A stretch of DNA of 64,000 nucleotides from Klebsiella phage RCIP0009. The translations under genes were made by a program, and so were the position numbers. The stretch is taken from sequence record OR532803.1. The stretch is one strand, 5' to 3'. Below the pieces are notes generated by a model. The model was not told the origin of the DNA. It saw nothing but the letters and a program-made list of their open reading frames with translations, and did no database searches. This document shows positions 40,074 to 41,265 of the stretch, piece after piece; the stretch's first letter is position 1, and the number at the start of each line of letters is the position of its first letter.

Positions 40074-40152
40074 AGGATCTCCTTTCCTCTATTTAGCGGG
40101 GAACGGGATCAAAGCGGCCTGACGGGGTAATATAAAAATTTGAAGAAAATGC

Positions 40153-40181
40153 TTGACCTTTTAAAATCTTTGATCTATAAT
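40153..40181 (+). promoter_or_regulatory. sigma70-type early promoter P1 (TTGACC-17-TATAAT)
   Basis: Exact hexamers with 17-nt spacing. AT-rich UP region. GATC abuts the -10. Confidence 0.6.
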
Positions 40182-40268
40182 AATTATTAATTAAAATTTT
40201 ATCAAAAAGATCCAACAAGATCAAGTAAAATTTAATAAATAATTTATTAAAAATTTTTAGATCTGATC

Positions 40269-40297
40269 TTGAATTCATAAATTTTATGATCTATAAT
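40269..40297 (+). promoter_or_regulatory. sigma70-type early promoter P2 (TTGAAT-17-TATAAT)
   Basis: Exact -10 with 17-nt spacing. GATC abuts the -10. Confidence 0.6.
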
Positions 40298-40442
40298 ATA
40301 TTAATATTTTATTTTATCATAAATTTTTATGAAGATCAATACCTAGATCTAATAAATTTTATGCTTTTTCTGAAAACTTTTCCTTTACCCCGTCACTAAA
40401 TACTGGTACTATGTTCCCATATTGGAAATCAGGAAAAACAAA

Positions 40443-41231
40443 ATGACTCACTTGAAAAAATTCAAAGAATTTCTGACCGAAGGTAAAACCCTCGCTCGTA
40501 CCGTAGCACGTGGTCAACGCGCTAAAACTTCCGATAAACATTCAATCGGTTTTCTTCACTTCAAACATGGTTCTGATTTCGAAGTTTTAGCACCGGATTC
40601 TCACGATCTGGCATACTTCGGTAAAAACATTGTACGTTTGAAAGGTATGACTACTGGTAAAGTTCAAGCGGCTTATGTCGATTGGGCTAAAGGTACTGTT
40701 TCTTTCTACAGTGGCAATCCGGATGATGATCTGGATTTCGACAAACCAGAAAAATTCAAAGCTGCTACTCTGTATGAAGAGGCGGAAGAAAATCTGGATC
40801 TGTATAACCAGTTAGCAGAAGATTTCGAAATCGAGATCCCTATGGATGAAGCTCTGGTGAAAGGTAAAGTTTACAAACTCCCAAGCAACGATATGCGTCT
40901 TCTGTACACTGGGCGTTCTAAAACTAAAGCAAGCGGTGAATATGCAGTGTTTACCGTAGTTGATGCTTCCGGCAAACCTCGCCTAGTATCTGGTAAAAAA
41001 TTCACCCAAGAATATAAAGGCGATATGGTTTCTAAACTGGTTCTGGCTGAATCCGAAGATCTGAATGAAGCGGCTAAAGGCATTCGCGAAAAAGTTATTG
41101 CTGTGATGGTGAAACGCGGGTTTAACGAAAAAGATGCAGAAAAGATGGTTGACAAAAACCTGAAAGATGCTATGAAAGTTAGACCTGGTGCGACCCCTGG
41201 CAAACTTGCAGAAATAGTTAGCACCCTGTAA
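40443..41231 (+). CDS. highly expressed Lys/Glu-rich protein with a capsid-targeting-sequence-like N-terminus (internal-protein-like; candidate injected protein)
   Basis: The ATG has an AGGAAA RBS (the ORF track begins at an upstream TTG). MTHLKKFKEFLTE resembles the T4 capsid-targeting sequence MKTYQEFIAE. Host-optimal codons. Confidence 0.55.
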   Translation: MTHLKKFKEFLTEGKTLARTVARGQRAKTSDKHSIGFLHFKHGSDFEVLAPDSHDLAYFGKNIVRLKGMTTGKVQAAYVDWAKGTVSFYSGNPDDDLDFDKPEKFKAATLYEEAEENLDLYNQLAEDFEIEIPMDEALVKGKVYKLPSNDMRLLYTGRSKTKASGEYAVFTVVDASGKPRLVSGKKFTQEYKGDMVSKLVLAESEDLNEAAKGIREKVIAVMVKRGFNEKDAEKMVDKNLKDAMKVRPGATPGKLAEIVSTL

Positions 41232-41237
41232 AAATAA

Positions 41238-41265
41238 AGCCCCTTCCTTTCGGTTGGGGCTTTTT
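41238..41265. terminator. bidirectional terminator, identical hairpin to 2856-2886
   Basis: gccccttcctttcggttggggc plus T-run, between convergent genes. Confidence 0.55.

Follow-up and report, generated by a model that had tools for sequence, protein, structure and literature searches.

Known counterparts in T4-like phages

The closest described counterparts of the locus analysed here are the internal head proteins of phage T4. [quoted passage not shown] The prohead protease gp21 cuts after L/I-x-E, and an Asp at CTS position 10 blocks this cleavage (PMC9026906). IPI begins with MKTFKEF, and both IPII and IPIII begin with MKTYQEFIAE. A basic cargo is not required for targeting, as GFP and beta-galactosidase fusions are packaged (PMC9026906). 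The T4 protein Alt is trimmed at both ends (PMC9026906). The internal protein (IP) genes of T4 are under early promoters (PMC2839356).

[quoted passage not shown] 2010, PMC2839356). They consist of repeated copies of a sigma70-like promoter with a G/C-rich stem-loop and occur in hyperplastic regions (PMC2839356).

Here we examine an ORF between genes 3 and 2 of a Slopekvirus, a T4-like Klebsiella phage, within a 64-kb stretch of its DNA (the window). Judged by its sequence, the ORF on balance probably encodes a T4-type internal head protein and would join that established class. Proteome-wide and codon counts refer to the 99.7%-identical Miro genome.

The locus and its neighbourhood

The locus comprises the following elements:

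39543–40073, minus strand: gene 3 (tail completion / sheath stabiliser), left neighbour, from the PMBT1 and Miro annotation
40074–40442: AT-rich intergenic spacer, 369 bp, 25% GC
40443–41231, plus strand: ORF of 262 aa, 29.2 kDa, pI 8.4, candidate internal protein
41236–41263: bidirectional intrinsic terminator hairpin, closing the ORF (plus strand) and gene 2 (minus strand)
41268–42122, minus strand: gene 2 (DNA end protector), right neighbour, from annotation, with Pfam Phage_T4_gp2 on syntenic homologues
2857–2884, plus strand: identical 28-nt copy of the hairpin, after gene 25

The Pfam match of gene 3 (Phage_T4_gp19-like, E = 1.5e-5) lies under the curated cut-off. In T4 no gene lies between genes 3 and 2. 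The ORF is found at the same place, the 3/2 interval, in RB16, RB43, JC221, Phynn and a metagenomic relative; CPRSA and CPRSB were left out of this comparison because their gene calls are fragmented. A first-pass annotation of the DNA had described the gene as inserted between genes 3 and 2, which is true only relative to T4. Since synteny holds across genera (Slopekvirus, Pseudotevenvirus and three further relatives), a recent insertion is ruled out; the ORF is an old resident, ancestral to Slopekvirus and Pseudotevenvirus.

The same annotation had pointed out that the terminator is identical to the one after gene 25. The two copies do agree over 28 nt, and their flanks are unrelated. Folding of the hairpin gives -16.9 kcal/mol on one strand and -16.4 kcal/mol on the other. 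An Rfam scan of positions 39900–41400 gave no match. A 61-aa minus-strand ORF in the spacer (40093–40278) was rejected as a gene because of its optimal-codon fraction of 0.27 and GC3 of 0.20.

Promoters and expression timing

The spacer contains repeats and several putative transcription and translation signals:

40089–40097, minus strand: late-promoter-like motif GCTAAATAG, 16 nt upstream of the gene 3 start
40120–40130: left arm of a perfect 11-bp inverted repeat, TGACGGGGTAA, with its right arm at 40385–40395
40133–40363, plus strand: tandem duplication, two diverged copies about 115–116 bp apart
40153–40181, plus strand: early-type promoter P1, TTGACC-17-TATAAT, 11/12 consensus positions
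40269–40297, plus strand: early-type promoter P2, TTGAAT-17-TATAAT, 10/12 consensus positions
40384–40412, plus strand: proximal promoter remnant, TTTACC-17-TACTAT
40395–40403, plus strand: late-promoter motif ACTAAATAC, at -48 of the ORF, within the spacer of the proximal promoter remnant
40431–40436, plus strand: ribosome-binding site AGGAAA, also annotated in Miro

Both sigma70-type promoters with 17-nt spacing had been proposed before and were recovered here, as were the ribosome-binding site and the ATG at 40443; the stop codon occupies 41229–41231. At least two such promoter sites on one strand are unexpected by chance (P = 0.0006, first-order Markov simulations of the spacer). A/T-rich DNA lies upstream of P1. 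Each promoter has a GATC at -16 to -13, and at P2 one more abuts the -35 hexamer. P1 and P2 correspond to the two halves of a tandem duplication with a unit of ~115 bp, each copy containing one promoter and its own GATC sites, and the 11-bp inverted repeat brackets the promoter block. In relatives the counterpart of the proximal remnant reads TTGA(C/T)C-17-TATCAT, and the spacer has a different yet conserved AT-rich core with inverted repeats at its flanks.

A late motif with a TAAATA core stands at about -47 of the ORF in the window and in 5/5 relatives, inside or beside an early promoter. The motif class of GCTAAATAG is also present upstream of gp53, gp6, gp28 and the holin gene; more generally, the classes seen at the ORF also precede bona fide late genes. 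The retention in five relatives of a late motif within the proximal early promoter implies that the ORF would be expressed both early and late.

Codon usage also points to high expression. The optimal-codon fraction of the ORF is 0.72, against 0.42–0.53 for genes 1, 3, 2 and 4, which bears out the earlier remark that its codons are host-optimal and unlike those of its neighbours. In codon bias it ranks 10th of 265 Miro genes, alongside gp23, gp22 and gp19; among proteins of at least 200 aa only gp23 and gp22 outrank it.

With its own sigma70-like promoters, AT-rich upstream DNA and a GGGGC/GCCCC-type stem-loop terminator which recurs elsewhere in the genome, the self-contained ORF unit resembles a PeSL cassette. 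It differs in that a G/C stem-loop is missing from P1 and P2 and from their immediate surroundings; the repeated hairpin is confined to the 3′ end. Furthermore, the locus belongs to a conserved block of virion genes instead of a hyperplastic region, and the unit is stable across genera with no sign of recent shuffling. A PeSL cassette is ruled out because the promoters carry no stem-loop. PeSL-like units of promoter and stem-loop are present in the 64-kb window.

The capsid-targeting-like N-terminus

The first codons of the ORF encode the putative tag:

40443–40481, plus strand: capsid-targeting-like propeptide MTHLKKFKEFLTE, codons 1–13, predicted gp21 cut after Glu13

The N-terminus of the protein family (about 20 members) follows the pattern MK(S/T/N)FKE(L/F/Y)(L/I/M)xE and is followed by a variable, indel-rich stretch. 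Position 4 is Phe, and position 7 is Leu, Phe or Tyr, with Met in one member. Position 8, the P3 residue, is Leu or Ile in 18 of 20 sequences (Met in one, Phe in one), and position 10 is Glu across the family. In the window protein an extra MTH precedes the tag, which thus begins at residue 4, whereas all tested T4 CTS start at residue 1. Because of this 3-residue offset the targeting residues are F7 and F10, and the predicted cleavage is L11-T12-E13↓G14 (the arrow marks the cut). Phe7, Lys8 and Glu13 are invariant in alignment A1. The propeptide is shorter by one or two residues in three family members. After the predicted cut the family has Gly, Ser or Val, compared with Ala at the four T4 sites read.

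When 269 Miro N-termini were scored against the T4 CTS, the ORF came top at 26, ahead of a runner-up at 19, with about 0.03 such scores expected. Two occurrences of the strict motif [FY]xx[FLIM][LI]xE were counted close to the N-terminus, against 0.34 expected. No second ORF with this exact N-terminus is present in the genome; T4 IPII and IPIII share theirs. The components of the putative packaging route are encoded in Miro, where gp21, a gp22-like scaffold, gp67 and gp68 lie at 132361–134487, in a region outside the 64-kb window, and gp23 retains the cleavage site FLAE↓AEIAGDHGY at Glu65. At sequence level the earlier idea of a capsid-targeted internal protein is supported by the conserved start with its L/I-x-E, the match to T4 at the four functional positions, the invariant Glu, the presence of gp21 and gp22 in close relatives, the very strong codon bias and the conserved late-promoter motif; the action of the start as a tag is a prediction.

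A similar start was seen in an unrelated Miro protein:

Miro 144677–145516: zeta-toxin-domain protein

It begins with MKSFKQFTESTLTE↓A, near the IPI propeptide (0.03 expected), and this start is largely kept in the best 120 of 1612 homologues.

The proposed pathway comprises the following steps. The ORF would be transcribed early from the two strong sigma70-type promoters and late from the gp55-type motif, leading to high protein levels. Residues 4–13, LKKFKEFLTE, would act as the capsid-targeting sequence which docks the protein on the gp22 scaffolding core during prohead assembly. Cleavage by the gp21 prohead protease after Glu13 (L-T-E↓G) would leave a mature protein of ~27.6 kDa, which would stay in the head with the DNA and enter the next host cell together with it. 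We infer packaging, cleavage and injection from the sequence features described above.

Compared with the T4 internal proteins, the candidate shares the 10-residue N-terminal tag with aromatic residue 4, hydrophobic residue 7, Leu/Ile at 8 and Glu at 10, as well as the L/I-x-E cleavage motif, gp21 and gp22 being encoded by the phage's close relatives. The family consensus MKxFKE(L/F) differs very little from the MKTFKEF start of IPI. Early promoters and high-expression signals are further likenesses, as are variable bodies of unknown or adaptive function. The differences concern size (262 aa and three modules versus 95–193 aa), the offset of the tag by three residues, and location between genes 3 and 2, not in either of the two T-even IP loci. 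Those loci are hypervariable, whereas the ORF is conserved and syntenic across genera. In addition, the T4 proteins are strongly basic (precursor pI 8.9–9.5), unlike the near-neutral ORF product, whose predicted mature form (residues 14–262) has a pI of 7.9; and packaging of the ORF product is a prediction. With T4 Alt the candidate would have in common that a large protein enters the prohead core, is trimmed by gp21 and acts on the host after injection, which is proposed here and shown for Alt; it also has a conserved L-x-E at each domain boundary. It has no similarity to Alt in sequence or fold and no ADP-ribosyltransferase motif, and the Alt propeptide is unrelated in sequence.

The main competing explanation is that the ORF product, synthesised in both phases, is abundant in the cytoplasm but never packaged, and might serve as a host-takeover or anti-defence factor. 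We consider this possible but not probable. The CTS-like start would then stem from 5′ codons that are AT-rich and optimised for expression, or from a first helix that is amphipathic in the ordinary way. Indeed, the first 13 codons have 31% GC, and AT-rich codons favour Lys, Phe, Glu and Ile, so that the 5′ codons could inflate the resemblance; residues 5–12 are modelled as a short low-confidence helix. Moreover, the two strongest promoters are early-type, the product is not strongly basic, and the literature search retrieved neither virion proteomes nor N-terminal sequences or injection data for any Slopekvirus or Pseudotevenvirus. On the other hand, the match to the T4 CTS covers precisely the four residues with a mapped function, including the invariant Glu, and the N-terminal peptide is conserved though the next 15–20 residues vary freely in the family. 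Other codon-optimised genes of the genome have no CTS-like N-termini, so that the resemblance is not explained by codon bias alone. Finally, the conserved late-promoter motif fits a need during head assembly.

Modular architecture of the protein

Beyond the putative propeptide, three modules were delimited:

40500–40823, plus strand: domain 1, residues 20–127, beta-rich conserved core, ending in a conserved LAE
40860–41042, plus strand: domain 2, residues 140–200, beta domain, missing in some relatives
41082–41225, plus strand: C-terminal three-helix module, residues 214–261, phrog_9411

Domain 1 contains the motif DSHDLAYFGK...RLKGxTTGK...KGTVxF and recurs in CC2 and nt-1 within different architectures. 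The C-terminal module is exchanged for others in relatives and is also encoded by itself as a small protein. In Slopekvirus none of the three modules has a paralogue. T4 IPI, IPII and IPIII show no similarity to the product outside the tag.

Searches of Pfam, NCBIfam, PADLOC and PDB sequences gave no match, and PHROGs returned only families of unknown function. Fold and family matching gave nothing pointing to a function. A profile run against 1.8 billion representative proteins retrieved just 13 relatives, and none of them hints at a function either. The idea of an anti-restriction factor, raised in the first-pass annotation by analogy to T4, found no support in these databases; furthermore, these phages do not contain hmC, which the target enzyme of T4 IPI recognises. 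The combination of a conserved core with variable, swappable C-terminal modules suggests that the mature protein is an effector aimed at the host and not a structural component.

The tripeptide LAE occurs at residues 124–126 and 201–203, the two inter-domain boundaries, and a disordered linker is predicted after each. The ORF might thus encode a modular cargo polyprotein whose LAE boundaries are cut by the prohead protease, with swappable injected effectors sharing one tag. Two or three separate polypeptides would then be freed inside the head. We regard this version as rather unlikely.

A protein packaged by the same route could also help to assemble the head, a role put forward for T4 IPIII, or to condense the DNA, instead of acting on the host as an injected effector. 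T4 IPIII mutants build heads more slowly, and internal proteins co-purify with gp22 (PMC9026906). Conservation and synteny of the gene in Slopekvirus, Pseudotevenvirus, JC221 and Phynn, in contrast to the hypervariable T-even IP loci, would suit such a role, as would a codon bias equal to that of gp22. Nevertheless, the exchange of C-terminal modules and the shuffling of domain 1 into other architectures are more effector-like, a purely morphogenetic protein needs no strong early expression, and the near-neutral charge argues against DNA condensation. Overall, a role in assembly or condensation seems decidedly unlikely.

GATC sites in the spacer

GATC occurs ten times in the spacer, at 40076, 40107, 40172, 40209, 40219, 40260, 40265, 40288, 40334 and 40346, compared with 0.8 expected by composition and 2.5 by window-wide density (6.8 per kb). 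Nowhere in the 64-kb window is this count exceeded, and it was reached in 0 of 20,000 shuffles. The count of nine given earlier holds for the shorter interval then considered, and GATC does directly precede both -10 hexamers (TGATCTATAAT), as had been noted. The cluster is Slopekvirus-specific: relatives with the same gene layout have 2–5 sites, and there GATC is placed in the -35 hexamer (TTGATC). The spacing of the sites in the spacer is not phased.

Dam-sensitive promoters include those of IS10 (pIN), Tn5 transposase, dnaA (P2) and P1 cre. Like these, P1 and P2 have GATC within or next to core promoter elements, and Dam is encoded by the phage; the virion DNA of phage KP15 is Dam-methylated (PMC3620542). 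They differ in that their GATC lies at -16 to -13, outside both hexamers. In a reading that we also regard as rather unlikely, the Slopekvirus cluster could enable the two added promoters to tell fully methylated injected DNA apart from newly replicated DNA.

It is very improbable that the spacer acts mainly in cis, for instance as a promoter-primed origin of replication or as a site under SeqA/Dam control, and not for expression of the ORF: ten GATC in 369 bp of 19–25% GC, strong promoters with very AT-rich DNA behind them, an arrangement also seen at T4 origins, T4 oriE about 3 kb off in the equivalent map region and the inverted repeats around the AT-rich block here and in relatives would fit, but in the window no GC-skew switch or other origin signature coincides with the spacer, initiator-binding repeats were not found, the GATC sites are unphased and the cluster is absent in relatives with the same layout, and the promoters aim at a codon-optimised ORF with a good ribosome-binding site.

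Implications

In host range, Slopekviruses rank with the broadest Klebsiella phages under consideration for therapy (KlebPhaCol preprint). Roughly half of their genes are without an assigned function. If the candidate internal protein is injected with the DNA, it would be one of the earliest phage factors that the host encounters, and hence a leading candidate for a role in counter-defence or takeover. The T4 capsid-targeting tag would then work outside the T-even group, at another locus and with a large multi-domain cargo. This would provide a simple sequence rule for spotting injected proteins in other T4-like genomes, with the zeta-toxin-domain family as a second candidate, and would support use of the tag for loading foreign proteins into Klebsiella phages.

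Locus and gene family

The ORF encodes a protein of 262 residues between genes 3 and 2, where T4 has a gap of only 106 bp and no gene. Its ribosome binding site, start and stop are as the first-pass annotation placed them.

38848-39543, minus strand: gene 1 (dNMP kinase)
39543-40073, minus strand: gene 3
40074-40442: spacer of 369 bp between gene 3 and the ORF
40443-41231, plus strand: ORF, followed by a hairpin
41268-42122, minus strand: gene 2, followed by genes 4, 53 and 5

Spacer and ORF are 100% identical in Klebsiella phage RCIP0002, and identity is 99.7% in PMBT1, Miro and many other members of Slopekvirus (Straboviridae). 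The gene had been described as inserted, but a recent insertion is not borne out: RB16 and RB43 (both Pseudotevenvirus), Yersinia phage JC221, Pantoea phage Phynn and a metagenomic contig all have a homologue in the same slot, on the strand opposite to genes 3 and 2, and the ORF is therefore old. The family is small: a word-indexed search gave 14 clusters, and 1.8 billion proteins yielded 13 representatives. No match to the protein was found in Pfam, NCBIfam, PADLOC or PDB sequences.

In T4 (AF158101.6, bases 62000-80000; L015), ipI lies four genes from the equivalent position, in the order ipI-57B-57A-1-3-2, so that the candidate gene shares its neighbourhood with one of the two T-even loci for internal proteins (IPs). 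The T4 57B position is occupied here by an Acb1 anti-CBASS phosphodiesterase gene (37898-38521, minus; Pfam PF23474, E = 2e-47), annotated in Miro and PMBT1 just as 'hypothetical' or 'T4-like phage protein'. Between the ORF and its terminator, Miro has a gene for an AP2-domain homing endonuclease (L002:41337-41795), which is absent from RCIP0009 (41232-41267). A 61-aa ORF within the spacer (40093-40278, minus), a hypothetical protein in some records, is probably not a gene (optimal-codon fraction 0.27, GC3 0.20).

The N-terminal tag

The rules for the capsid-targeting sequence (tag) of T4 come from the Black laboratory (reviewed in PMC9026906). Propeptides of T4 IPs are N-terminal and 10-19 residues long, and the first ten residues of IPIII are enough for packaging. 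Residues 4 and 7 serve targeting, and residues 8 and 10 processing; the prohead protease gp21 cleaves after L/I-x-E, and Asp at position 10 abolishes cleavage (PMC9026906). Read directly from the T4 sequences, IPII and IPIII start MKTYQEFIAE/A and IPI starts MKTFKEFTSTTTPVSTITE/A (a slash marks the actual or predicted cut).

N-termini of the ORF family include MKSFKELLSES, MKTFKELITES, MKNFKEFLNEV, MKNFKEFMTES and MKQFKQFLSEV. Phe stands at position 4 and Glu at position 10; Leu, Phe or Tyr is found at position 7 and Leu or Ile at position 8, with Met in one member at each of the latter two. The propeptide is one or two residues shorter in three members, and the 15-20 residues following the tag are variable, with indels. 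In the window protein the family peptide is shifted by three residues (MTH-LKKFKEFLTE/G); the properly spaced ribosome binding site belongs to the ATG, not to the in-frame TTG at codon 4.

When the 269 N-termini of the Miro proteome are ranked by their score for the T4 tag, the window protein comes first (26 vs 19 for the runner-up), with about 0.03 such matches expected from a background of internal positions. A strict positional motif retrieves two N-termini vs 0.34 expected. Other codon-optimised genes lack a tag-like start, which argues against a pure artefact of AT-rich 5' codons. The near-identical genome of Miro encodes the machinery on which such a tag depends (gp21, a gp22-like scaffold, gp67 and gp68), all outside the window, and in the Miro major capsid protein the cleavage site known from T4 is retained at Glu65.

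Expression signals

The host-optimal codon usage claimed for the ORF is evident: its optimal-codon fraction is 0.72 vs 0.42-0.53 in genes 1, 3, 2 and 4. This places it 10th among the 265 genes of Miro; of those ranked higher, just two, gp23 and the gp22-like scaffold, encode proteins of 200 aa or more. The terminator hairpin (41236-41263) is, as reported, identical over 28 nt to 2857-2884 after gene 25, with unrelated flanks. It folds equally well on either strand, with a T-run after it each time, and is therefore the terminator of the ORF as well as of gene 2, which converges on it.

A consensus scan recovered both proposed early promoters, P1 (TTGACC-17-TATAAT, 40153-40181) and P2 (TTGAAT-17-TATAAT, 40269-40297). 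Two such sites on one strand arose in 0.06% of Markov-1 simulations of the spacer. The two promoters correspond to the diverged copies of one tandem duplication of ~115 bp and hence are not independent. Comparison of the spacers places a single proximal sigma70-type promoter ~57 nt before the start codon in all five relatives, with TTGA(C/T)C, a 16- or 17-nt spacer and TATCAT or TACGAT as the -10 hexamer. The spacer of this promoter contains a late-promoter motif (TATAAATA, AATAAATA or CTAAATA). Motifs of these classes are found upstream of bona fide late genes in this genome (gp22, gp20, gp19, gp7, gp34, gp36 and hoc; gp24 and gp15; gp53, gp6, gp28, the holin gene and gene 3), and CTAAATA is the late consensus described for Aeh1 (PMC1524935).

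In the window, the late motif ACTAAATAC is kept at -48 within a weakened promoter remnant (TTTACC-17-TACTAT), upstream of which the duplicated P1/P2 block has been added. From these sequences we infer that the family would be expressed both early and late, with early expression boosted in Slopekvirus. Prohead loading requires late availability of the protein. T4 IP genes are driven by early promoters too (PMC2839356).

Elsewhere in the window, at ~3921, 15319 and 20649 (minus), GCCC...GGGGC stem-loops are joined to near-consensus sigma70 promoters (e.g. aaaaagcccTTGACTtcggtcggggcttttt-TATTAT), resembling the PeSL regulatory cassettes described for RB49/phi1.

GATC sites and other spacer elements

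The GATC cluster holds up as described: nine sites in the originally annotated interval and ten in the whole spacer, vs 0.8 expected by composition, and both -10 hexamers follow TGATC. The window-wide density, itself 1.84x the composition expectation, predicts 2.5. Ten sites is the window maximum, which 0 of 20,000 shuffles reached. Some sites are common to both repeat units and others occur in one only, so that the cluster is not just a by-product of the duplication. It is specific to Slopekvirus, with 2-5 sites in the relatives; the -35 hexamer of the homologue's promoter is TTGATC in four of these five, and GATC at this gene's promoter therefore recurs. Miro encodes a T4-like Dam. Almost all KP15 virion DNA is degraded by DpnI and is therefore Dam-methylated, whereas KP27 DNA is, oddly, uncut (PMC3620542).

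Tetranucleotide bias over the whole window, relative to composition, is 1.84x for GATC, 0.19x for CTAG, 0.41x for AGCT and 1.67x for CGCG; the GATC excess coexists with a phage-encoded Dam gene. A perfect 11-bp inverted repeat (40120-40130 and 40385-40395) lies on either side of the promoter block. The corresponding spacers of the relatives are as follows.

L007:1239-1509, RB16
L008:1228-1509, RB43
L011:2065-2500, JC221
L012:2281-2500, Phynn
L013:2252-2500, metagenomic contig

All of them contain the AT-rich core TATATATTTTATATATAGAG, which is conserved and has short inverted repeats on its flanks (aatgtccac...gtggacatt and gagcgaagcga...tcgcttcgctc). In Slopekvirus the GATC-rich promoter block stands in the place of this core.

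Domain architecture

The AlphaFold model (mean pLDDT 73) comprises three modules: a well-predicted, beta-rich domain 1 (residues 20-127), a beta domain 2 (140-200) and a C-terminal three-helix bundle (214-261). Confidence is low at the N-terminus (1-14) and in the linkers 128-136 and 204-211. Domain 1 carries the invariant motif DSHDLAYFGK...RLKGxTTGK...KGTVxF and is kept in the relatives; domain 2 is sometimes missing, and at least three different C-terminal modules occur. Separate small proteins of 53-77 aa correspond to the C-terminal module by itself (phrog_9411), an unrelated protein of Aeromonas phage CC2 ends in a version of domain 1, and a 118-aa protein of Vibrio phage nt-1 has a fold matching domain 1.

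Each of the two boundaries between domains has a conserved L-x-E motif (residues 124-126 and 201-203), followed by a low-confidence linker, exactly where the relatives exchange modules. The whole protein holds seven L/I-x-E motifs, and the fit of the boundary motifs to multi-site gp21 processing, as reported for Alt, is only suggestive.

Interpretation of the ORF

Capsid-targeting tags and injected internal proteins are already well established. For T-even phages, over 30 IP variants have been reported, at two loci only (PMC2839356), and reviewers have already proposed that T4-like phages use the tag generally for loading (PMC9026906). Given this background, the ORF probably encodes another T4-type internal protein. 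It is unusual in belonging to a non-T-even host group and to a different, stable locus, and in combining what would be a large multi-domain cargo with an overlapping early/late promoter.

We give its candidacy for packaging as such a protein a slightly better than even chance. This reading is favoured because the conserved tag with its invariant Glu, the late motif, the codon bias and the variable body built of modules are all explained by it. Against it stand the three-residue offset of the tag in the window protein, a residue after the cut that is not Ala but Gly, Ser or Val, and a near-neutral mature protein (pI 7.9). In addition, no virion-proteomic support for packaging was found in the literature searched on Slopekvirus and Pseudotevenvirus, which also counts against it. 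Among the rival readings, an abundant protein that is not packaged is unlikely, and a packaged protein with a role in morphogenesis, not an effector, is less probable still. A cis element centred on the spacer, such as an origin, is very improbable.

Other tag-like N-termini

The DNA end protector gp2, a head protein (41268-42122, minus), starts MSFIFEFEIIAEE, with I-A-E at residues 10-12, and this start is similar to the last residues of the T4 tag (EFIAE). Two Miro proteins encoded outside the window are weaker candidates for packaging, judged by their N-termini: a 109-aa, basic, highly codon-biased DUF7717 protein (9399-9728, minus; MNTFEILAE/K) and a 291-aa protein (145631-146506, plus; MKIDLHRFIAE/F), whose gene is transcribed divergently from that of a zeta-toxin-domain protein.

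The zeta-toxin-domain protein (Pfam PF06414; Miro KT001919.1 144677-145516, minus; L003:31677-32516), also outside the window, starts MKSFKQFTESTLTE/A, which closely resembles the T4 IPI propeptide in length as well as in sequence (0.03 chance matches expected). This start is largely kept in the best 120 of 1612 homologues, from diverse T4-like phages. The protein, a kinase-like enzyme, may be a second one packaged into the capsid. If the tag were a general targeting signal, its presence on two unrelated proteins would be expected.
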